The notes under the pieces are model-generated. The model had not been told where the DNA came from. It searched no databases and saw only the letters and a program-made list of their open reading frames with translations. Source: a virus. Taken from it: a DNA stretch of 29,779 nucleotides. The stretch lies in UHGV virus genome UHGV-1366609; one strand, 5' to 3'. Both the position numbers and the translations under genes were made by a program. Of the stretch, positions 3,621 through 25,820 are shown in pieces (the first letter of the stretch is position 1; each line of letters opens with the position of its first letter).

Positions 3621-5731
3621 CCTGCGTTAAGCTCCTGCCATTCAGCCAACTGGGCCGGGGTGATTCCATTGGGGGCGTTGATGTAGGTATCGCCCCACGA
3701 TTTACGGTTATCAACGGCGGTTTTGCTGTCGGTTTTAACCTGACTCATCAGGCCGCCGCGTGGGATGTCTGCATTAATTCGGTTCCCCGTCAGCACTGAC
3801 GGGCTGTTCAGCTTCGACGAACCTGCAGCACTGTCAGGAATGACCGCGTTTGCCGGAACGGCAGCCGCTGCCGGTGGCGAAACGGTTTTCAGGTCGATGT
3901 TGACGCCGGGGATCTTGTTTAGCTTCTCCACAATCCAGTTATAGGTAGACGCAAAGGTATTTTTGAGGACGTCAAAAAGTTTGCTGAATACCCCGCCGAT
4001 GGTTTGTGCGAACCCTTCAAAGGTGGCAAGCGGGGAAAGACCGGCAAAGAAATCAACCACCACGGCCCAGCCGTCAGTGATGGACTGCCAGACCTGCGCA
4101 AACACCTGGCCCACCTGTTCAGCGACCGACATCACCCAGGCAAAAGCCGACGTATCCATGATTGCTGTCGCAAGTTCTTCCCAGTGGGTGATGACGTACC
4201 AGACCCCCACGGCCAGAAGCGCCAGCCCGGCAATGATCAGGGTGATCGGACTCATCAGGAGTTGCATTGCCGCCCCGGCAAACATGGTCGCCGCACCGTA
4301 AACCCGCATGGCAATGGCCCCGGCCTTTAACGCGATATTCCATGCAGCAAGCGCGATGCGGCAGACGCCCGTCCACAGCGCCAGTAATTTTGACTGGATC
4401 CACAATGCAGCCAGACCGATGCGCGTCGTCAGCAGGGACGGACGCAACAGGTTGAGCGTCCATAACAGTAGTTTCCATGCGCCGCCCAGTACCTTAGCGA
4501 TTGCAGCCAGCCCCGTCATGGTGAAGCCAAAGACCCCCATCACGATATTGACCGCCGCCCCGGCCAGCCCGAATGACAACACGCCCAGGGTGATGTACCC
4601 CAGCCAGCGGGCAATATTCGGGAACATATCCAGCCAGCGGGCAAATTTTGTCCCCACGTCGGCAATACGGTTCATCAGCGGTGACAGGATAGGGATCAGC
4701 GTGTTACCAATCGCCGCGCGAATGGCAAAGAATGTCGCTTTGATACGTTCCCACGGCTCGGCCATTCGTTCGGCCATTTCCTGGGCGCGTTTCATCCCGT
4801 CATTTCGGCCCAGTTCGGTGATGCTGCGGTTTAATTTATCCTGCTGACCGTACAGCTTTTTGATAACGTCAGCACCACCACCGAACGCGGCGTCCAGCGC
4901 CTGTTGTGCCTTGACGTTTCCTTCAATGCTCTGCCCGTATTTGCTCTGAAGTTTTTGCAGAATGTCACCCATCGGCAGCATTTTTCCGGTGGCATCGACA
5001 AAGCTCATACCCAGCTTTTCAGCGGCAGCCGGGGCGCTGCGTAAAAACTGCTCGTAGATCCCGCTGGCCTCAGTACCCAGCGTGCGCGAAAGCGTACCCA
5101 GGACGGCGAACTGTTCATCCAGGCTGACGCCAAAGTCAGCACCGGCGCTTTTCGTCCCCTCGATAAGCTCCTGCATGGTCTGCATTTTCACGCCGAAGTT
5201 TTGCACCATGTACGCCGTTTTCCCTGCCAGCTCTTCGGCAAAACGTACATGGCCCAGACTGGACAACTCCGCGTTGAAGCGTGACGCCATCGCGCCGATG
5301 TATTCGCCTGCCTCTTCGCCGCTGGCCTTGACGCCTGCGGCCAGGGTATTGGCCGCGATGGTGACGCGGGGCAGGTCCATATCGGACAGGCCCGCCATTG
5401 CGCCTTTCATCGCATAGCTTGACCGGACCACATCAACGGCCCCTTTGCCGTAGCGCATACTGAATCGCATGGCTTCACCGGACAGACGCTTCAGCGCATC
5501 CTCTGCCACGCCTTTGGAACCCACTTCTGCGAGTGCGGCGTTCATCTCATACGCCGGACCCACCACGCCCGCGATGGACTGCGCCACGCCCCAGACAGCC
5601 GCCGCACCGATCCCAATTTTTGTAAAAGACGCCTGCGATTTTTCGGCAAAGCCGGACAGCGAAGACTGGGCCGTCTTTAATGGCCGCGTCAGCTTATCGA
5701 TCAGGCTCAGGGTAAAATCCAGGTGACTCAT
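3617..5731 (-). CDS. Tail tape measure protein
   Basis: 704 aa, Ala/Gly-rich with helical N-terminal half and a block of hydrophobic segments (residues about 380-520). Lies directly downstream of the frameshifted chaperone gene. Confidence 0.85.
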   Translation of the reverse strand: MSHLDFTLSLIDKLTRPLKTAQSSLSGFAEKSQASFTKIGIGAAAVWGVAQSIAGVVGPAYEMNAALAEVGSKGVAEDALKRLSGEAMRFSMRYGKGAVDVVRSSYAMKGAMAGLSDMDLPRVTIAANTLAAGVKASGEEAGEYIGAMASRFNAELSSLGHVRFAEELAGKTAYMVQNFGVKMQTMQELIEGTKSAGADFGVSLDEQFAVLGTLSRTLGTEASGIYEQFLRSAPAAAEKLGMSFVDATGKMLPMGDILQKLQSKYGQSIEGNVKAQQALDAAFGGGADVIKKLYGQQDKLNRSITELGRNDGMKRAQEMAERMAEPWERIKATFFAIRAAIGNTLIPILSPLMNRIADVGTKFARWLDMFPNIARWLGYITLGVLSFGLAGAAVNIVMGVFGFTMTGLAAIAKVLGGAWKLLLWTLNLLRPSLLTTRIGLAALWIQSKLLALWTGVCRIALAAWNIALKAGAIAMRVYGAATMFAGAAMQLLMSPITLIIAGLALLAVGVWYVITHWEELATAIMDTSAFAWVMSVAEQVGQVFAQVWQSITDGWAVVVDFFAGLSPLATFEGFAQTIGGVFSKLFDVLKNTFASTYNWIVEKLNKIPGVNIDLKTVSPPAAAAVPANAVIPDSAAGSSKLNSPSVLTGNRINADIPRGGLMSQVKTDSKTAVDNRKSWGDTYINAPNGITPAQLAEWQELNAG

Positions 5732-13662: not shown

Positions 13663-15474
13663 ATGGCTAAATATTCCGATGAATTAAAAGAAGCGGCCCG
13701 CACGCTTTATATAAAAAGCTGGTCGCCGAAAGATATTGCGCAGGAACTGAATATTCCACCGCGTACAATTTACCACTGGGCTGACGTCGGGAAGTGGGCA
13801 TCACTGCTGCCTGTCGAATCGGTGGAAAATGTCATCGCCCGCCGTATCGACCAGCTCACCCGCCGCGAGAAAAAAACATCGCTGGAACTGGAGGAACTGC
13901 GCGATCTGATTGCTCACCATGTGAAACTCATGGCGCAGCGCAACAAGCACGCCGAAAAGCTGGCAGAAATTCAGGCCCAGAAAGCGGCTTATGATGGTGA
14001 AGGGTACTGCCTCAGCAGCGCAGGCGGGGAACCAGGGGAAAGAAAGCGCCGGTATAAGAAAAACGACGTTTCCGGTATTACAGCGGAAATGCTCGACACC
14101 TGGGCGCGGGAACATCTCTTCGAGTACCAGTTGCACTGTCGCGAACATAAAGGCGAAGACTGGCGCTTCATTCTGAAAAGCCGACAGGTCGGCATGACCT
14201 ATTATTTCGCCTGGGAGGCATTCGAAGATGCTGTCATTACCGGCGATAACCAGGTCTTTTTCTCTGCAAGCCGCTCCCAGTCTGAAATCTTCCGTGAATA
14301 CATCGTCCAGATCGCCCAGAACCATTTCGACGTGACGCTGACGGGTAAAAATATCCGCCTCAGCAACGGCGCAATACTGCGCTTTTTGTCCACGAACGCC
14401 AGCACCGCGCAGGGCTTTAACGGCCACCTGTATGGCGATGAGGTTTTCTGGATCCCGAAATTCACGCGCCTGCACGAAGTTGCCAGCGCAATGGCAACGC
14501 ATAACAAATACCGAACGACCTACTTTTCGACGCCCAGCGCGAAAACGCACCAGGCTTACCCGGTATGGACTGGCGAAGCCTGGCGCGGGGACGACCCGAA
14601 ACGCAAAGGTGTGAAGTTCCCGAACGACAGCGAAATGCGCCAGGGTATTCTTTGCCCGGACCAGATCTGGCGCTACATCATCACGATGGAAGACGCTATC
14701 GAAGGTGGCCTCGGTGCGCTTGTCGATATTGAACGGCTGCGCAACAAATACAGCCCGACCGCGTTCGCCATGCTCTACATGTGCCAGTTTGTTGACAGTA
14801 AGGACGCGGTGTTCAAGTTCTCCGCGCTTGTCGGCTGCGAAGTGGACCGGGCCACATGGGGCGACTTTGATCTGACCGCTGCGCGGCCCTTCGGCAATCG
14901 CGAAGTATGGGCAGGCTTTGACCCGTCACGATCCGGCGACAACTCCACCTTTGTTTTAATCGCGCCCCCCATAGAGGACGGCGAGCGCTTCCGCGTGCTG
15001 GCCGTCTGGCAATGGCAGGGCTTTAACTTCAGTTGGCAGGCCGACCAGATAAAGCAACTTATGCGCCGCTTTAACATCACTTACATCGGGATCGATACAA
15101 CCGGCATTGGTAAGGGCGTTTATGACCTGGTCAGCAAGTTTGCACCGCGCGAAGCCACACCCATTCTTTACAGCGTCGAAAGCAAAAACCGTCTGGTAAT
15201 GAAGATGATCGACGTTGTCGAGCGTAAACGCATCGAATGGGCAAAAGATGCCGTAGACGAAACGAACAAAGAGCGCGTCGAAATTCCGGCCAGCTTTATG
15301 GCTATCCGGCGCACGACAACCAACAGCGGCAACGCGCTGACGTTTGTTGCCGAACGTTCAGACGCGACCGGCCATGCAGATGTTTTCTTCGCTATCTCGC
15401 ACGCCGTAATTAACGAACCTATCGATCACGAATATGACCGCCCATCGGGCTGGTACTTTGGGAAAGCAGCATGA
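13663..15474 (+). CDS. P: Terminase large (ATPase) subunit, P2 gpP-like
   Basis: 603 aa, divergent from O as in P2; stop overlaps the portal start (ATGA). Confidence 0.85.
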   Translation: MAKYSDELKEAARTLYIKSWSPKDIAQELNIPPRTIYHWADVGKWASLLPVESVENVIARRIDQLTRREKKTSLELEELRDLIAHHVKLMAQRNKHAEKLAEIQAQKAAYDGEGYCLSSAGGEPGERKRRYKKNDVSGITAEMLDTWAREHLFEYQLHCREHKGEDWRFILKSRQVGMTYYFAWEAFEDAVITGDNQVFFSASRSQSEIFREYIVQIAQNHFDVTLTGKNIRLSNGAILRFLSTNASTAQGFNGHLYGDEVFWIPKFTRLHEVASAMATHNKYRTTYFSTPSAKTHQAYPVWTGEAWRGDDPKRKGVKFPNDSEMRQGILCPDQIWRYIITMEDAIEGGLGALVDIERLRNKYSPTAFAMLYMCQFVDSKDAVFKFSALVGCEVDRATWGDFDLTAARPFGNREVWAGFDPSRSGDNSTFVLIAPPIEDGERFRVLAVWQWQGFNFSWQADQIKQLMRRFNITYIGIDTTGIGKGVYDLVSKFAPREATPILYSVESKNRLVMKMIDVVERKRIEWAKDAVDETNKERVEIPASFMAIRRTTTNSGNALTFVAERSDATGHADVFFAISHAVINEPIDHEYDRPSGWYFGKAA

Positions 15475-16532
15475 CAAAGAAACAGCGTAATAATAAAAAA
15501 TTCAGGTCCATGACCGGCAGCAAGGTTGAAACCTTCACGCCAGGGCGCGGAAGCGTGATCACATTTGGCGAACCCGAACCCATCCTTACGACCGGCACTG
15601 ATTATCACAATATCTGGTATGACAATGAATATGACCACTGGCGACTCCCGATTGATCGCCTGGCGCTGGCCCAGTTGCCGAACCTTAACGGCCAGCACGG
15701 TGGGGTACTGTATGCGCGGCGCAATATGGTAGCAGGTGGCTACATCGGCGGCGGCCTGACGCCTGATCAGGTCGAACAGGCTGTCTTTGATTACCTGCTG
15801 TTTGGTGACGTTGCTATCCTGAAAATTCGTAACGTATTCGGGGAAGTGATCGACCTGCTGCCGCTGCCGTCACTGTATCTGCGCTGCCGGAAAGACGGCT
15901 CTTTTGCTGTTCTGCAGGAAGGGCCGGCGCTTATCTATGACCCGGAAGACATCGTCTTCTTTAAAATGTACGACCCGCGCCAGCAGGTTTACGGCCTGCC
16001 GGACTATATCGGCGGGATTCATTCGGCCTTACTTAACAGCGAAGCAACCATCTTCCGACGCCGCTATTACAACAACGGGGCGCATATGGGCTTTATCCTC
16101 TATACCAGCGATCCAAACCTCACGCTGGAAATGGAGAACGAGATTAAAGATAAAATTGCTCAGTCAAAAGGCCTGGGCAACTTCCGCAATATGTTTATCA
16201 ACATCCCCAAAGGCGACCCGGACGGGGTCAAAATCTTGCCTGTGGGTGAAGTGAGCGCGAAAGATGAATTCGCCAGCATTAAGGGAATCACCGCGCAGGA
16301 TATTTTTACCGCGCACCGCTTCCCCGCAGGGCTTGCGGGCATCATCCCGACCAACGGCGCGATAATGGGCGACCCTGAAAAGGCCCGCGCGACCTATCGG
16401 AAAGATGAAGTTATCCCGTTGCAGCGCAAACTAATGCAGGGCGTGAACAACGACCCGGAGATCCCGCCGCACCTGCACCTGAAATTTGAGATTGAAACAC
16501 CGGTAAACAGCGCCGAAAAGGGCGAAAAATGA
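15471..16532 (+). CDS. Q: Portal protein, P2 gpQ-like
   Basis: 353 aa, immediately downstream of and coupled to the terminase large subunit; size and position as P2 gpQ. Confidence 0.85.
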   Translation: MTKKQRNNKKFRSMTGSKVETFTPGRGSVITFGEPEPILTTGTDYHNIWYDNEYDHWRLPIDRLALAQLPNLNGQHGGVLYARRNMVAGGYIGGGLTPDQVEQAVFDYLLFGDVAILKIRNVFGEVIDLLPLPSLYLRCRKDGSFAVLQEGPALIYDPEDIVFFKMYDPRQQVYGLPDYIGGIHSALLNSEATIFRRRYYNNGAHMGFILYTSDPNLTLEMENEIKDKIAQSKGLGNFRNMFINIPKGDPDGVKILPVGEVSAKDEFASIKGITAQDIFTAHRFPAGLAGIIPTNGAIMGDPEKARATYRKDEVIPLQRKLMQGVNNDPEIPPHLHLKFEIETPVNSAEKGEK

Positions 16533-16855
16533 ACGAGATTAAGTTAAAATCATCCCTATTGTTAGCAATGGCGTGCGGGATGGTGAACATGCGAGTTTTT
16601 AAAATTAAATGTCCTGAATGCGGCTCACCGGCCATCATTCGCAAATCTGACTGGAAAGACAAAAAACTGGCTGATTTATACTGCGCCTGCACGGAAGTTG
16701 AATGCGGCCACACCTTTGTTTTTAACGCCCAGTTTTCACATACCCTCAGCCCCAGCGGGCTGACCGGCAACAAGCTGGTTAAATTCCTGATTGACCGACT
16801 CAAGCCGGAAGAACGTCAATTCGCGCTGGACCTGCTCAACGGCCAGACGGCATAA
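16529..16855 (+). CDS. ogr: Ogr/Delta-family zinc-finger late transcription activator
   Basis: CPEC-x22-C-x4-C-GHTF matches the P2 Ogr pattern CPLC-x22-C-x4-C-SATF; downstream SPSG echoes Ogr PLPSG. True start may be the internal Met (MRVFKIKCPEC, about 16589). Confidence 0.7.
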   Translation: MNEIKLKSSLLLAMACGMVNMRVFKIKCPECGSPAIIRKSDWKDKKLADLYCACTEVECGHTFVFNAQFSHTLSPSGLTGNKLVKFLIDRLKPEERQFALDLLNGQTA

Positions 16856-16860
16856 ACGAA

Positions 16861-16886
16861 GCCCGCATAAAGCGGGCTTTTTTATT
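16861..16886 (+). terminator. Rho-independent terminator, probably bidirectional, between convergent ogr-like and methyltransferase genes
   Basis: GCCCGC-ATAAA-GCGGGC hairpin followed by TTTTTTATT, 5 nt after the ogr-like stop. Confidence 0.7.
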
Positions 16887-17601
16887 CGACATCACAAAGC
16901 GCGGTCATGATCGCCAGCCGTTCCGCTGGCGGCAAGGCGGCGAACTTATCCCGCCAGCGTGCCGCTTTACGTTTTATCCTGGCCCGGTCGTTGTAGTCCT
17001 TTCCGGCAAAGGTGTGGGAATAGGCTTTCCCTTCCTCGTAATTCATCCAGATTTTTTCCGTTCGCACGCCGCCCCGCGTCATGGCCTGAAACTCTCGCGT
17101 TCGCCAGCCGGTCAGCGTGCTGTCATAAAGCTGCGACGGGTAGCCAGACAAAATGACACTCACATTTTCCGGCAGTGACATCAGGCAACGTAAAAGGCGC
17201 TCATGATCGGCGACGGTGTATTCATGGCGGTAACGGGCGTGACTGGTGCGCGTTTCCGGCATATATGGCGGATCACAATAAATCAGCACCTTACCCAGCT
17301 TTTCAAAAGACGTAACCCCATCCAGCACGCTAGGCCTTTTGAGACTTTCAAGAAAATACACGGCATCACCATGAAAAAAATCAATGCGTGGTGGCTTCAA
17401 TCCCTTAACCTCCCAACGCTGCATTGTTTGCCGACGTGCTGTTTCATCAAGATCCGCACCGTAATTCCGCTTCGCAGGCGGCTTGAAAAACATCACCGCA
17501 CCGCTGCCCAGATGCGTTTCAATGTAGGTATCATGCGGGGGCATTTCAGCAATGATTTTCTGATAGACCCCGCTGGCCGCTTTACTTCCCAGATAACTCA
17601 T
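16882..17601 (-). CDS. N6-adenine DNA methyltransferase (phage-type Dam-like), orphan
   Basis: 239 aa. HLGSGAV (AdoMet-binding, motif I-like) and LIYCDPPY (motif IV DPPY). No adjacent nuclease-like gene. Confidence 0.6.
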   Translation of the reverse strand: MSYLGSKAASGVYQKIIAEMPPHDTYIETHLGSGAVMFFKPPAKRNYGADLDETARRQTMQRWEVKGLKPPRIDFFHGDAVYFLESLKRPSVLDGVTSFEKLGKVLIYCDPPYMPETRTSHARYRHEYTVADHERLLRCLMSLPENVSVILSGYPSQLYDSTLTGWRTREFQAMTRGGVRTEKIWMNYEEGKAYSHTFAGKDYNDRARIKRKAARWRDKFAALPPAERLAIMTALCDVE

Positions 17602-17640
17602 ACTTTCCCGCCCTCAGCTGGCACGGTCATTCCTGACCTG

Positions 17641-17729
17641 CAGCACTGTTAAAAATGACCGTCCTCGATACAAATGGCCAGCACTGTCAAAAGTGATAGT
17701 GTCTGCCGGAATACACTGTCAGAAATAAC
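17641..17729. repeat. Three direct repeats CAGCACTGTyAAAArTGA-like in the A/methyltransferase intergenic region
   Basis: CAGCACTGTTAAAAATGAC at 17641..17659, CAGCACTGTCAAAAGTGAT at 17679..17697, ACACTGTCAGAAATAAC at 17713..17729; copy 1 is flanked by the inverted pair CACGGTCAT (17621..17629) and ATGACCGTC (17655..17663). Confidence 0.5.
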
Positions 17730-17817
17730 AGCACGGTACCCGCGGGCTCTTTGCCGCCCGCACCCGCAGAATCACGCCAGCCGACGCAACCAGTTGCGAC
17801 GGCCAGCGCGATTGCAT

Positions 17818-20427
17818 TCATTCTTTTGGGTGGCGACCTTCCGCACCCGCCAGCATTTTTTGATACTCCCCGACCGGATCAAACCGCAGGCGCGTGGCAT
17901 CTATACCGTGGTTATCCCGCAGACGTTCCCATAATTTATTCATCGTCCGTGACTCGTCGGGTAATTGACGCGTTATTAACTGGCCGTCAGCACTGGCCCG
18001 ATAAACTTTGCCGCCAATCTCCAGACAGCTCCCCATTAACAGCGAAACGGCCTGAATCTCTGAAATCTCAACCGAACACAACACCGCATCAGCCAGCAGA
18101 CTGGCAACCGCAGGGGCAAGCGCTGCCCGTCTGGCTTTTTCTGCCGCTGATCTGGCCTCGGTTTTTTCGACGGCAGAACGCCACGCGACATCTAATTCGC
18201 TTCCTGGCTCATAAGGTGATCCGCTTTTCTGCCTTTTGAATGGTGTTTCACGTAGTCGCCGCATCAATTTGCGCCGCGTCTGCTGGTCCATGTTTTCAAA
18301 ATCGACGATTTCCTCTTCTGATTCTTCTGTCATCCCCTCCACATCAGGCGAAAAATCGGTGATTTTTTCGTCTTCCGTAGAGTTATTGACAGAACTCCAA
18401 GCGTCGCCGGTTGGCGACGGCAAAAGGTCAACCCCCAAACCGGGGCCTTTTTTGGCCCCGGTGGCGGCTTTGGATTTGGCGCGGATTTTCCACTTAACCA
18501 GGCGGGTGCAAATACGGGAGGCATCCCCCAGACGCGGCGACCAGACCCCGAATACCTTTTCGGGGATCTCACAATAAGCATTCATTTCATCAGCAGGCTG
18601 ATAGGCCAGACGAACGACATAGTTTTCACGCGGGATCAAAACACCGCCCTGGCGGATGATGTAGGTAGCAAAGCACCCAACATCGGCAGCAGCGCAAACC
18701 GCATCCATCGCAGGATCCATAAGCAGCGGTGCGCCGCGCTTGAAGGTATTGTCAATTTTCTGGCGGGCCGTGATCTGATTGCTCAGTTTGCGCAGCTCGC
18801 GGTAAACCGATATAGGCGGTTGTCCGATGGGCTGAAACTGGCGGATACGGTGAAGCGATGCCCAAGCCATTGCAAACTTGGCTGTTTCATTCAGGGGCTT
18901 GCCGCTTTCGTCGTCCAGTTCACCGGCCAGCGCGTGGCCGTCGATATTCTTTGAAATGTATTTGGCTATGTATGCCGTTGCTGACCCTTTTCGCGGGTCC
19001 ATTTTTTTTGACTTGAAGCGAGCGCCGGTATTGCGGCCCAGCTCGTCGCGGTCTTCCGCAATGAAGTAAGCGCGAAGGATCGCAACCGTGGCTTTAACTT
19101 GCTCCTTTGGCATAAACAGCAATGCGTGCCAGTGTGGCGTCCCATCGTGATGCGGCTCGGCGACGCGGAAGCCATAAGGGCGCAAATCTTCGCGTTTCAG
19201 TTTGGCGGTTGCCCGGTTCCATACACGGCATAAATAGCGCTGCGCCTGGGCGACGGTGGAATGATTCCATTTGGCGTTATGGTGGCCGGACGCAATATTA
19301 CTGTGATATTTCGACGGGCAAGTAATGGTCAGGAAGATGCCAACATCGCCGCGACTTTGGGCGACAAGTTCAACCCCAGCCATTCGGGCCATAAGCTCAT
19401 GGCGACGAATAGCCGGGTTAGACGTGGATTTATTAATCATTTCCTCGAGCGACGAAACGTTGCCGTCTTCGTCTACCAGTTCATGACTTTTGAAAAAATC
19501 CCGGTTTTTACGGCGCTGTTCCTGCCACTCGATCAGGCTGGAAGCGCTAACGTAGGCGTGCGCTTTTTTATTTACCGCGCCAACAGCACGCAGCTGGTTC
19601 TCGCGCCAGTCACAACGCAGGCGCCAGATTTTGCGCCCCCACCAGTCAGGCGAAGCCATACGCAAAATGGCCGTGCATATGCGCTCGCGTTCCCACGGCG
19701 CATACCATGCAGGCGGCACAATACGAAGCGCCAGCATTTCGCGGCCCAGGTGGCAATAAAGCCAGTCCAGTTCTTCGACGTTCATGTCGGAAACATTCCG
19801 CCCCAGGGCTTCGCATTCCGTCCCAAGCATTTCAGCCATGCGGCTGGCGATCTCATTAGCGGCGCTTAGTGCCTCCCGCTTTGTGAAATCAGCCAGTCGT
19901 TGCCAGCGCCCGAACCAGTACGCGGCCAGTTCGCCGGTGAGATCAGGCGAAACACCTTGCCTTGTGCGCACAACATCAAGACGCAGCAATGATTTTTTCA
20001 CGGTCCCCATAAGAAAATCATTGGTGTGTCTGGCTTCACGGTTGGCCCGTAACCATTCAATTTTTTTGCGCCAGACTTCACGAATGAAGAACGGCTCTGA
20101 TAATAAACGCGCTTCGACACCTTCCGGCGTATTGGCCCAGGCTGCCGCCGTAGCTTTGGCGGCTTCCATTTCCTGCCGGATTATATTTTGATGGGCGGCC
20201 AGTGGCAGGCCGCACGGTTCGTACCTGTCCAGCGCCTGGATAAGCGCGTTACGGTCGCGAACATCGTCGGGGTTGTAACCGGCGCGTTTGAAGATGTGAT
20301 CGATGTGTTTTTTAACGGCAGGATGATGCGCCACCGCCCCGGCAAGCGGGGCGATTTTTTTCGGTTCGTAGGTGTAAAGGCCAACAGCTGGGCGCGGCGC
20401 GTTCCAGGGCCATGCGAAATCAGTCAT
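17818..20427 (-). CDS. A: Rolling-circle replication initiator, P2 gpA-like
   Basis: About 869 aa from ATG 20427..20425 (the track ORF begins at an upstream TTG). HUH motif TPHWHALLF and paired tyrosines YIAKY (Y-x3-Y), as in P2 A. Confidence 0.85.
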   Translation of the reverse strand: MTDFAWPWNAPRPAVGLYTYEPKKIAPLAGAVAHHPAVKKHIDHIFKRAGYNPDDVRDRNALIQALDRYEPCGLPLAAHQNIIRQEMEAAKATAAAWANTPEGVEARLLSEPFFIREVWRKKIEWLRANREARHTNDFLMGTVKKSLLRLDVVRTRQGVSPDLTGELAAYWFGRWQRLADFTKREALSAANEIASRMAEMLGTECEALGRNVSDMNVEELDWLYCHLGREMLALRIVPPAWYAPWERERICTAILRMASPDWWGRKIWRLRCDWRENQLRAVGAVNKKAHAYVSASSLIEWQEQRRKNRDFFKSHELVDEDGNVSSLEEMINKSTSNPAIRRHELMARMAGVELVAQSRGDVGIFLTITCPSKYHSNIASGHHNAKWNHSTVAQAQRYLCRVWNRATAKLKREDLRPYGFRVAEPHHDGTPHWHALLFMPKEQVKATVAILRAYFIAEDRDELGRNTGARFKSKKMDPRKGSATAYIAKYISKNIDGHALAGELDDESGKPLNETAKFAMAWASLHRIRQFQPIGQPPISVYRELRKLSNQITARQKIDNTFKRGAPLLMDPAMDAVCAAADVGCFATYIIRQGGVLIPRENYVVRLAYQPADEMNAYCEIPEKVFGVWSPRLGDASRICTRLVKWKIRAKSKAATGAKKGPGLGVDLLPSPTGDAWSSVNNSTEDEKITDFSPDVEGMTEESEEEIVDFENMDQQTRRKLMRRLRETPFKRQKSGSPYEPGSELDVAWRSAVEKTEARSAAEKARRAALAPAVASLLADAVLCSVEISEIQAVSLLMGSCLEIGGKVYRASADGQLITRQLPDESRTMNKLWERLRDNHGIDATRLRFDPVGEYQKMLAGAEGRHPKE

Positions 20428-20435
20428 GGCGGCCC

Positions 20436-20702
20436 TCAAAACGGCAATTCATCGTCAGTGCAATCTGGATCAATGGCGAGCGTAACCGGGCTACCGCACT
20501 TAAAACTTAGCGCCTCTGAGAAGGTGGAAAAAGCAGCGGTATCGCGAACACAAACGCCGTCATAAAAAGCGTCGAACTCAACCAACCAGATGTCACCCAT
20601 TTGCCAACGGTCATGGATACGCTCAACGACCATCATCGCGGTGACATCTCCGTCCGTAGTGGCCGGATCAAAGCCGATGAATTCCCTTGCGGTCAGGCTC
20701 AT
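20436..20702 (-). CDS. Small highly acidic early protein with SSB-tip-like C-terminus (function unknown)
   Basis: 88 aa, about 17 Asp/Glu versus 5 Arg/Lys; C-terminus ...DPDCTDDELPF confirmed codon by codon. Its stop sits 8 nt before the A start. Confidence 0.5.
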   Translation of the reverse strand: MSLTAREFIGFDPATTDGDVTAMMVVERIHDRWQMGDIWLVEFDAFYDGVCVRDTAAFSTFSEALSFKCGSPVTLAIDPDCTDDELPF

Positions 20703-20926
20703 TTTTTACACTCCACGTTATATTTTTCATGCGTCATCAGTGACCAGACCTTGCCGTCGTTTTTACTCAGCAAGCGCCAGCGCCTACCGATGCGGATCAC
20801 AAGGTAAAAATTGGGTTTGATGCGGGAATAGTTTTTTAGGCCGCGAGAAAAGCGGCGCAGCTCGGCAGCTGCGTGACCGCAGACACCTACCGGCGCAGCG
20901 CATGAGATCTGCAGTTTGCTGACCAT
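20699..20926 (-). CDS. Small basic hypothetical protein
   Basis: 75 aa, Arg/Lys-rich; start overlaps the upstream stop (TGATG). No motif recognised. Confidence 0.4.
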   Translation of the reverse strand: MVSKLQISCAAPVGVCGHAAAELRRFSRGLKNYSRIKPNFYLVIRIGRRWRLLSKNDGKVWSLMTHEKYNVECKK

Positions 20927-21381
20927 CAGAAAGGTACTCCGCCGTCAAAATCACCGACTGGCGACGTCTTGAATGTAAAAGCCGTTCCTGGGCGAAATTT
21001 GCGGGCGTTCTTGAATGATCGAAAAGTGCGCGAGTGCGGGAAGCTATCCCCCGTCATGACATCCATTGCGATTACATCAACCCGAACGGAACCACGCTCC
21101 CGGCGAGTGATAGAGATAACCTTCTCAACTACTGCAAAAACAGAGGTGTCGTGAGGGGCATAAGGTGCGACCGGCGAGACTTGTTGCACTGCCGGACTAT
21201 GTTTCTCAATTAGTGGATCAAGTATCGCGTTAAAGGAAATTAGCAATGTATTAGCCACGTCAGGCCCAGCCAAAACGCCCGCTAACGTCGCATGGGCAAG
21301 CGCAATGGTTTTAGCTTCGTTAAGCGCAGCCAGCACTCCGCGTGTAAATTCGGATTGAGTTGCATCGATACGGGTTGCCAT
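20926..21381 (-). CDS. Hypothetical early protein ending in an SSB-tip-like tail
   Basis: 151 aa; C-terminus ...SPVGDFDGGVPF confirmed from the nucleotides. Coupled to the Dam stop upstream and the 75-aa start downstream. Confidence 0.5.
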   Translation of the reverse strand: MATRIDATQSEFTRGVLAALNEAKTIALAHATLAGVLAGPDVANTLLISFNAILDPLIEKHSPAVQQVSPVAPYAPHDTSVFAVVEKVISITRRERGSVRVDVIAMDVMTGDSFPHSRTFRSFKNARKFRPGTAFTFKTSPVGDFDGGVPF

Positions 21382-22346
21382 TAAAAAGCCTCCACGCCAT
21401 TGGCCGCAGCCGATGCCAGCATTTCGTTGTAGGTCGCGTCCCCCATTACCGGGCCGCAGTCAGGACAACAGCCACCACCGGCACGACCGCAGCCGCTGCA
21501 CACTTTGAGGACGCCGATCACCTCTTTGGCCTTTTCGCGGTTTTTAGTGCTGGCGCTTACCGAACGCTGGACGGCAATTTCCTGGAAGCGGAAGTCTTTG
21601 TAGATCTCGCGAGTCAGCGGGGTGTCGCTGTTAGAAATCACGACAGACGCGCCAGTCTCTCGGTTTGCTTTCAGAAGGGCGGCAACAAGCTGGCGGTGTT
21701 GCTTCTTACCAAATGGGCCAGTGTGGTACTGGGTAAAATTGGCGGTGTCACTTGCAGGCAGGTACGGCGGATCACAGTAAATAACGCTATCAGGGAAAAG
21801 AGGGGCGTTGATGGCGTCTACGAAGTCACTACAAAGAAATAAAGTGCAGGTATCGCGGGCCTTTTCAGAGAACAAGCGGATCTCCACTTCTGGCAAATAC
21901 TGCGTTTCTTTATCCTTCCCCTTTCCGTAAGGGGTGTTGTACTCACCTTTCAGGTTGTAGCGCACAACACCGTTGTAGCCGTGGCGGTTCAGGTACAAAA
22001 AGAACGCGGCGCGGGCGACACTAGTAAAATGGTGGCGCAGGCGGCGACCTTTCGGATGATTGAACATGTCGCGAAGTTTTGCGTAATTTGCGCTGGTATT
22101 GCGGTTCTTAAACAAGTCGCGAGACAGGCTTATCAGTTCGTCAGGGGTGCTTCTGGCAACACGATAAAGGTTAATCAAATCGGGGTTTATATCGCTCAGA
22201 ATGTAGCGACGATAATCTGTATTCAGGAAGACGGAAGCGCCCCCCACAAACGGCTCAACCAGGCATTCACCTTTCGGCAGAATCGGCAGTAATTCAGGCA
22301 TAACGCGGCCTTTACCACCGGGCCATTTAACGAGAGATCGAATCAT
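21381..22346 (-). CDS. dam: Dam-family DNA adenine methyltransferase (likely GATC-specific) with C-terminal Cys-rich extension
   Basis: N-terminus VKWPGGK...LPKGECLVEPFVGGASVFLNTDYRRYILSDINPDLINLY is near-collinear with E. coli Dam as I recall it; motif IV VIYCDPPY. Extra C-terminal CSGCGRAGGGCCPDCG. Confidence 0.85.
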   Translation of the reverse strand: MIRSLVKWPGGKGRVMPELLPILPKGECLVEPFVGGASVFLNTDYRRYILSDINPDLINLYRVARSTPDELISLSRDLFKNRNTSANYAKLRDMFNHPKGRRLRHHFTSVARAAFFLYLNRHGYNGVVRYNLKGEYNTPYGKGKDKETQYLPEVEIRLFSEKARDTCTLFLCSDFVDAINAPLFPDSVIYCDPPYLPASDTANFTQYHTGPFGKKQHRQLVAALLKANRETGASVVISNSDTPLTREIYKDFRFQEIAVQRSVSASTKNREKAKEVIGVLKVCSGCGRAGGGCCPDCGPVMGDATYNEMLASAAANGVEAF

Positions 22347-25310: not shown

Positions 25311-25820
25311 ATGGCAATGACAAAATGTAAAGAGTGCAAAAAAGAGGTATCAGCAAAGGCTAAGACTTGCCCTCATTGTGGAGTAAAGGATCCTGGCTTT
25401 AGCGCCAAAGATGCAATGGGTGGTTTTGTTTTTCTGTTAATCCTTGGGGCAATTGGGTACTGGTATTTCAGTGGTGATGAAGAGGCAACGGCCAAAGATG
25501 AGCCAAAAGTTAAGGTGTGTGCTAAGAATGATGGGCAGTGTATTTTTGAAGCCCATTTAGTTGATGCTTTGGTAGCCTGTAAAAGCCCGATTGAGAAAAC
25601 TTCAAAGTATGATTTCGAATGGACCAATGGTGCATTTGAAAATATCTTTAGTCGGTACATCAACAAACCGGAACAGAACCAGATTGTTTATGTGGGCGAT
25701 AAGCTGAAATTTACGAATGGGTTTAACGCCAAAGTGAACATGACGTATTCATGCACCCTTGACACAAAAACAAACAAAATGATCGATTATGAAGTGACTA
25801 AAGGGCGCTTGCCCGATTGA
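25311..25820 (+). CDS. AT-rich cargo (moron) gene: zinc-ribbon, single transmembrane helix, Cys-containing C-terminal domain; function unknown
   Basis: 169 aa. CKEC-x10-CPHC ribbon, hydrophobic GGFVFLLILGAIGYWYF, then about 115 aa with four Cys. Own AAGGAG 9 nt upstream of the ATG; composition visibly AT-richer than neighbouring phage genes. Confidence 0.6.
   Translation: MAMTKCKECKKEVSAKAKTCPHCGVKDPGFSAKDAMGGFVFLLILGAIGYWYFSGDEEATAKDEPKVKVCAKNDGQCIFEAHLVDALVACKSPIEKTSKYDFEWTNGAFENIFSRYINKPEQNQIVYVGDKLKFTNGFNAKVNMTYSCTLDTKTNKMIDYEVTKGRLPD

Follow-up and report, generated by a model that had tools for sequence, protein, structure and literature searches.

A compact Dam-like methyltransferase and the palindromic element upstream of it in a P2-like phage genome

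What might a second, unusually small adenine methyltransferase contribute to a phage that already encodes Dam? The question is raised by UHGV virus genome UHGV-1366609, of which we analysed a stretch of 29,779 nucleotides (here called the window; the source scaffold measures 29,834 bp). The window is nearly the whole genome of a P2-like phage, circularly permuted. Over the tested stretch 16400–18000 it is about 95% identical to the Salmonella phages SI7, SW3 and SW5 (Peduoviridae, Irrigatiovirus). Besides a full-length Dam homologue it encodes, at 16882..17601 on the minus strand, a compact Dam-like methyltransferase that we call MT2.

MT2 combines homology to Dam, a methyltransferase fold and conserved motifs with purifying selection, a fixed position, the lack of a nuclease partner and a private upstream element. 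We put at roughly 60% the probability that it is an active orphan DNA N6-adenine methyltransferase, which modifies phage DNA at a target other than GATC and adds to the protection against restriction that Dam affords. MT2 would then descend from the Dam/DpnM (D12, alpha-class) lineage by loss of the inserted target-recognition domain and gain of a short basic helical tail. Its gene is the distal one of the early (replication) block in P2-like phages of Enterobacterales. We infer that the enzyme would be made during lytic growth and be catalytically active on replicating phage DNA, at a motif of its own. The resulting benefit against host restriction would come on top of that from the GATC-specific Dam and, in some relatives, from a C5 methyltransferase. 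An anti-restriction or epigenetic role, as the original prediction for this locus suggested, is plausible.

The MT2 protein

Is the open reading frame (ORF) a real gene? It starts with ATG and specifies 239 amino acids (aa), with HLGSGAV at residues 30–36 and LIYCDPPY at residues 106–113, just as first described. Homologues number 2622 at E ≤ 1e-3, mostly from Enterobacterales and mostly carrying the source name ‘DNA adenine methylase’. When the library is clustered at 50% identity, 6254 clusters match MT2 at E ≤ 1e-3 and 516 at E ≤ 1e-30, which makes the compact build a common one; many of the matching clusters are 220–260 aa long and align with MT2 from end to end. Among related loci, 82 of 83 copies are intact (226–248 aa), and the median ratio of nonsynonymous to synonymous substitution rates (dN/dS) against the MT2 of the window is 0.15. 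MT2 is thus no chance ORF but a genuine gene, and it is under purifying selection.

To which family does it belong? Profile searches, the check proposed at the outset, place MT2 in PF02086 (MethyltransfD12) at 27.1 bits against a gathering cut-off of 22, in a partial match that covers only aa 103–154, aligned to profile positions 175–230. It does not reach the cut-offs of TIGR00571 dam (35.8 bits versus 114.85) or of the PRK10904 equivalog (16.1 versus 441), and it has no match to PF05869 of Pfam. In PHROGs it falls into phrog_56, ‘DNA methyltransferase’, at 2.4e-36. A literature search for a characterised member of the family found none.

The family was aligned from 59 diverse members, 36–68% identical to the protein of the window. 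Motif I, the S-adenosylmethionine (AdoMet)-binding loop HLGSGAV (17494..17514, minus strand), aligns with ‘EPFVGAGSVF’ of Dam, and the catalytic motif IV, LIYCDPPY (17263..17286, minus strand), with the DPPY of both Dam and DpnM; the motif II position is held by an acidic residue. Nine residues are invariant (G5, H23, G32, D110, P112, Y159, E182, G200 and R206), five more are at least 90% conserved (Y26, E28, Y108, P111 and Y113), and K7 and others are nearly invariant. Towards the C-terminus follows a conserved block, ‘G.D.R.R.RIKRK..RW...LP..ER.AIL’.

The DPPY motif belongs to a wider superfamily of amino-methyltransferases, so that MT2 might act on something other than DNA: on guanine-N2 or adenine-N6 of ribosomal or transfer RNA, or on a protein glutamine. 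We regard this as improbable. The N-terminal ‘GxK...YxEPFxGxG’ and the DPPY(L/M)P..T blocks match Dam and DpnM specifically, Pfam and NCBIfam return Dam-class models only, and the gene sits in a phage replication module. Moreover, elsewhere the compact domain forms part of larger proteins, joined to C5 cytosine DNA methyltransferase domains or, once, to DpdA, an enzyme of 7-deazaguanine DNA modification (the representatives are proteins P0212, P0182 and P0268). These fusions support DNA as the substrate and a theme of DNA modification.

If MT2 is so short, which part of Dam does it lack? An AlphaFold model built on the 59-member alignment (predicted local distance difference test, pLDDT, 93.5; predicted template-modelling score, pTM, 0.89) contains the complete seven-stranded class-I methyltransferase (Rossmann) fold, followed by two helices at residues 203–221 and 225–238. 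Foldseek agrees, the nearest structures being those of the Dam family. Aligned with Dam, the family profile forms two collinear blocks: profile positions 12–72 correspond to Dam 17–76 and positions 77–142 to Dam 161–234. Dam residues ~77–160, the recognition domain of ~84 residues, have no counterpart; in their place the model has a loop of ~15 residues (aa 89–104) that joins beta3/helix to beta4. The motif order X-I-II-III then IV-VIII is kept, while the inserted target-recognition domain is absent. So, too, is the GATC-contacting recognition hairpin (the ‘LNRxGYNGLxRYN’ region), which the Dam of the window possesses.

At its other end MT2 carries something that Dam lacks. The basic two-helix extension, aa 203–238 (16888..16995, minus strand; ‘RIKRKxxRW...LPxxER’), is defined by the model and the family alignment together. 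It lies outside the ~153 residues that superpose on Dam and has no Dam counterpart. R206 within it and G200 just before it are invariant, and the RIKRK block is conserved; the extension may serve to bind DNA. No close full-length structural match to MT2 was found in the PDB or among viral structures, where template-modelling (TM) scores in BFVD reached at most 0.55. From the two-block alignment, the loop at 89–104 and the C-terminal helices we conclude that MT2 is a catalytic core derived from Dam, minus the recognition domain and plus a basic helical tail.

The locus in related phages

If MT2 is a real gene, is it a passenger or a fixture of these genomes? On the one hand it is rare: full-length MT2 is present in 21 of 383 phage records with a gpA homologue, and in 8 of 5426 complete E. 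coli genomes. Within the 80 viral contigs that encode homologues 65–98% identical to it, on the other hand, the gene order is the same in every one: Dam, then at some distance A, MT2 directly after A and on its strand, and then the convergent portal and terminase genes. The post-A position recurs in three named genera, represented by SI7, SEN4/5 and Klebsiella 3LV2017. The median identity to the proteins of the window is 71% for MT2, 57% for Dam, 36% for terminase, 35% for A, 33% for portal and 28% for the capsid protein. With MT2 at 71% and core genes at 28–36%, the enzyme is common to very different P2-like backbones; it is a horizontally shared module. No gene is better conserved across these phages, whose core genes are only ~35% identical, and this speaks for recent horizontal spread or for strong selection.

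The interval between A and the portal gene Q has been described as a hotspot of accessory and defence genes in P2-like phages (PMC9122126). In P2 it holds tin and old, as the original prediction correctly said (PMC9122126); these are transcribed towards A, the opposite way to MT2. Does MT2, then, occupy a cargo position, as the original prediction had it? The interval is indeed a hotspot, but the term does not suit MT2 itself, which is fixed at the A-proximal edge and better conserved than anything else there, the cargo lying between MT2 and Q. Between the stop codons of MT2 and of the portal gene lie 353 to 5046 bp (median 1304), and in 28 of 79 related loci only 353–384 bp separate MT2 from the portal gene. 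MT2 is accessory at the level of the family; in the phages that have it, it always takes the same place, and it is the segment downstream that varies. It is better described as a conserved fixture at the edge of the hotspot than as swappable cargo.

Across loci L006–L085 the cargo in that variable segment amounts to anything between nothing and ~5 kb, and includes Doc/Phd-like and HicB-like toxin–antitoxin pairs as well as several recurrent small ORFs.

Could MT2 be the surviving modification half of a restriction–modification or defence cassette that once lay in the hotspot, or the partner of the cargo downstream? The defence character of the interval (PMC9122126) and the 1–5 kb of cargo that follow MT2 directly in many loci would fit, as would its PADLOC matches, the best of which is to a ‘Type II methyltransferase’ model (2.4e-25), with a weak one to PD-Lambda-5_B (1.3e-4). 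But the cargo ORFs of the related loci are heterogeneous, toxin–antitoxin-like pairs among them, without a recurrent nuclease. There is no cargo at all in the 28 short loci, and MT2 is conserved independently of it and oriented with A. We consider such an origin very improbable. Nor did any nuclease model of Pfam or PADLOC match the window proteins that were scanned for a restriction partner; MT2 is an orphan, without a nuclease partner.

How does MT2 stand to the other methyltransferase? The first enzyme (21381..22346, minus strand; 321 aa) is a full-length Dam homologue, matching PF02086 at 3.5e-58 over 252 of 253 profile positions and residues 5–269 of E. coli Dam at 6.3e-68, with the GATC-reading loop retained. 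MT2 resembles it only over 70 aa around DPPY, at 27% identity. Two different adenine methyltransferases are thus present, as predicted; the pairing, however, is no peculiarity of this phage but the rule of the group, Dam being found in 75 of the 80 loci. A more radical view would be that MT2 is catalytically dead or depends on a partner, for example in a heteromer that borrows the recognition domain of the co-resident Dam. Its want of such a domain and the frequent company of Dam agree with this view. Yet the catalytic and cofactor motifs are conserved throughout, under purifying selection, and in the remaining 5 loci no Dam homologue was detected within the fetched flank. We think this very improbable.

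Some relatives go further. SI7 and SEN5 each have three annotated methyltransferases, the third of SI7 being annotated as a cytosine methyltransferase. This 308-aa protein, in the region L001 4386–5309, overlaps the start of A. Its counterpart region in the window, 20436–21381 (minus strand) between Dam and A, holds instead three ORFs of 151 aa, 75 aa (ParE-like according to the Pfam assignment in the source record) and 88 aa. Since three small ORFs here face a 308-aa methyltransferase there, the early region is a second variable spot. The Dam of the window has, in the ~40 C-terminal residues beyond the Dam core, a Cys-rich stretch, CSGCGRAGGGCCPDCG, outside the alignment with E. coli Dam; it looks like a small zinc ribbon.

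The immediate neighbours bear out the convergent arrangement that had been described, with MT2 between A and the packaging genes and facing the portal and ogr-like genes. On the plus strand the gene for the terminase large subunit (13663–15474) is followed by portal Q (15471–16532; PF04860) and by an Ogr/Delta-type zinc-finger gene (16529–16855; PF04606, 2.6e-17), which overlaps the portal stop codon and is convergent with MT2. An intrinsic terminator hairpin (16858–16880, plus strand), with a 9-bp G+C-rich stem containing 6 G–C pairs and a T-run, occupies the junction. It lies 1 nt past the MT2 stop codon, and its T-run on the minus strand is poor. Upstream of MT2 and on the same strand comes replication gene A (17818–20439, minus strand; 873 aa; PF05840, 2.7e-107), across a gap of 216 bp.

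Where, in this arrangement, is the cos site? The 19-nt cohesive end of P2 was not found in the window with up to 3 mismatches allowed, and the 404-bp P2 cos junction gave no blastn match in the window or in 85 loci (L001–L085). A 13/19 resemblance to the cohesive end just 5′ of the MT2 ATG was dropped, as it is not conserved in close relatives. Because the ogr-like gene overlaps the portal stop and only 26 bp, taken up by the terminator, remain before MT2, there is no room for a P2-style cos beside Q. Elsewhere in the window, a 169-aa ORF just past the integrase gene (25311–25820, plus strand) has an N-terminal zinc-ribbon motif; its Pfam matches are all sub-threshold and it has no PADLOC match. 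It may be cargo at the attachment-site end.

The upstream element and the gap after A

What lies in front of MT2? Alignments reveal a conserved element of ~80 bp directly before the gene (17622..17701, minus strand). Read in the direction of MT2, it consists of a first palindrome, U1 (17701–17682), a linker CTGGCCAT-N2-4-ATCGAG, a second palindrome, U2 (17663–17644), the hexamer CTGCAG, and U3 (17640–17622), the third palindrome in the window. The palindromes, of which copies have two or three, are imperfect and of 8-4-8 form; the consensus of U1 is CACnGTCA-N4-TGACnGTG, and U2 is alike. The boxes TGGCCAT..ATCGAG and CTGCAG are invariant, many columns are 94–100% invariant, and the element is better conserved than the coding sequence of MT2. 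In 84 of 86 MT2 copies it ends 11–46 nt 5′ of the ATG, in the other two it is degenerate, and it is found nowhere else in those loci.

Is the element confined to MT2? A scan of viral contigs yielded at least 119 stretches, of which 117 new loci were analysed. An MT2 start follows within 110 nt downstream in 92 of the 117. In ~17 of them the element has a second setting: it comes straight after the tail-fibre assembly gene, with its three palindromes all present and a strong terminator behind them, where the tail-tube and tape-measure operon converges. Copies in both settings are carried by several contigs and by SEN4/SEN5; Enterobacter phage phiT5282H has the second-setting element without a full-length MT2. 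Besides that of the window, copies lie at L094 4700–4845, L206 2501–2636 and L205 741–893. A pattern scan of genome contigs returned mostly unrelated taxa, as is to be expected by chance for a short gapped pattern in a very large collection; only a few Enterobacterales matches looked genuine. The two positions presumably correspond to the two classical P2 variable regions. The element is a cis-signal of this phage group, placed at the ends of two operons.

In L094, within the 3′ end of the tail-fibre assembly gene (4550–4658), there is also a partial match to the Rfam family IS009 (48 bits against a gathering threshold of 117; E 4e-10). This is more likely shared coding sequence than an RNA gene.

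Does the element act as DNA or as RNA? No Rfam family matches it, hits to a Trp leader being just the terminator. A two-hairpin RNA model pairs 82% of cells, compared with 79% after shuffling; RNAalifold gives next to no consensus structure (−0.8 kcal/mol); and mismatches of the G.U type are as frequent as those of the A.C type. With pairing near the shuffled level, no consensus and no excess of G.U over A.C, we reject RNA hairpins in favour of imperfect DNA palindromes. Nor does the element resemble a promoter: no sigma-70 consensus site was found in 16400–18100 and no TGT-N12-ACA late-promoter dyad in the gap between A and MT2, and −35 and −10 boxes fitted by hand matched the element poorly. 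The most economical reading would make it an operator set for a conserved, dimeric DNA-binding factor. That this factor should be MT2 itself is weakened by phiT5282H, which has the element without MT2.

The control region gives some substance to a different view of MT2, namely that it is a regulatory, epigenetic enzyme which marks phage or host DNA in order to time packaging, replication or gene switching, or which reprogrammes the lysogen. A very conserved palindromic region private to the gene is what one would expect of a tightly regulated enzyme, and the same element stands at a second operon end in some phages. MT2 adjoins a replication gene, is near packaging genes and belongs to a phage that already has a GATC Dam. 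Against this, the element is present in phiT5282H as well, which has no full-length MT2, and a gene found full-length in so few of the gpA-bearing records cannot be essential for P2-type development. We hold a regulatory role to be unlikely.

The remainder of the gap differs between close relatives. Just past the stop of A stands a G+C-rich hairpin, GCGGGC-GGCAAAGA-GCCCGC (17742..17761, minus strand), which six close relatives share without change. A TTTTT run behind it turns it into a terminator in SI7-type loci, where a 67-aa ORF (SI7 gp36) comes next. When window 17602–17817 is compared with L006/L014 6592–7015 and L001 1362–1757, the window shows a deletion of ~180 bp relative to SI7-type phages; the T-run and the 67-aa ORF are lost and the bare hairpin is left. 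A 44-aa ORF overlapping the stop of A (17687–17821), called as a gene in the source contig, is probably not one, because the region is conserved as a hairpin and the ATG is not conserved in L018.

Comparison with known systems

What is new here? Not the basic methyltransferase call, since orthologues are already annotated as DNA methyltransferases, and MT2 is an ordinary kind of phage gene. Unusual are its minimal build, its tight conservation and the conserved DNA element upstream. Three things are new: an architecture that dispenses with the recognition domain and ends in a basic helical tail, a degree of conservation across backbones that is exceptional, and the palindromic element linked to the gene. 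Should MT2 prove an ordinary, motif-specific enzyme, the finding would be routine. Orphan methyltransferases are a main route by which phages get around restriction–modification, and they complicate both the prediction of host range in phage therapy and the interpretation of methylomes. The target motif of MT2 would tell whether broad anti-restriction is in the repertoire of P2-like phages of Salmonella, Klebsiella, Citrobacter and Enterobacter, and would improve an annotation that now reads simply ‘DNA adenine methylase’.

With Dam, DpnM and T4 Dam (PF02086, D12, alpha-class) MT2 shares the order of motifs, the AdoMet-binding glycine loop and DPPY. It differs from them in the absence of the GATC-reading domain (Dam ~77–160) and in the added, conserved basic C-terminal extension of two helices. 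Does the absence of that domain imply relaxed specificity? The small Dam enzymes of T1/HP1-type phages (PF05869) are reported to have no conventional recognition domain and to be GATC-specific all the same. Since these enzymes stay specific, relaxed specificity is not to be read from the architecture alone. A bolder version would have a very widespread, minimal Dam core with a DNA-binding basic hairpin and a specificity that is very short or almost nil, moving as a self-contained module between unrelated P2-like backbones together with its three-palindrome control element; we judge this unlikely. If it were true, MT2, at 27 kDa, would rank with Hia5 or M.EcoGII as a candidate tool and would be a broad-spectrum anti-restriction enzyme. 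The element, found at the second P2 hotspot after the gene for tail-fibre assembly as well, would then be a new signal for cis-regulation or recombination in P2-like phages.

The tin and old genes of P2 share with MT2 only the interval between A and Q. They are anti-phage exclusion genes, expressed from a promoter near cos; unlike them, MT2 is co-oriented with A, fixed in position, conserved across divergent backbones and free of matches to defence models other than methyltransferases.

M.EcoGII is likewise a prophage-borne orphan, and a non-specific adenine methyltransferase (PMC5778455, PMC7544214). It is of the beta class, with another motif order and another lineage, so that no homology to MT2 is implied; the two would be analogues only if the specificity of MT2 were relaxed.

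By analogy, the closest precedent for MT2 is the group of Hia5, Hin1523 and Nme1821 from Mu-like prophages. These orphans, structurally closest to DpnM and Dam and aberrant in their recognition region, methylate almost any adenine and provide broad anti-restriction (PMC3299994). To go by their published description, they have in common with MT2 the FxGxG and DPPY motifs on a Dam/DpnM-like core (PMC3299994). They are, however, larger, with ~281 aa, DPPY at 191–194 and a divergent region of ~90 residues between motifs III and IV, whereas MT2, with 239 aa and DPPY at 110–113, has essentially no such region. Their setting, compared again by description, also differs: they stand at the mom position with a com-like gene (PMC3299994), and MT2 at the post-A position of P2-like phages.
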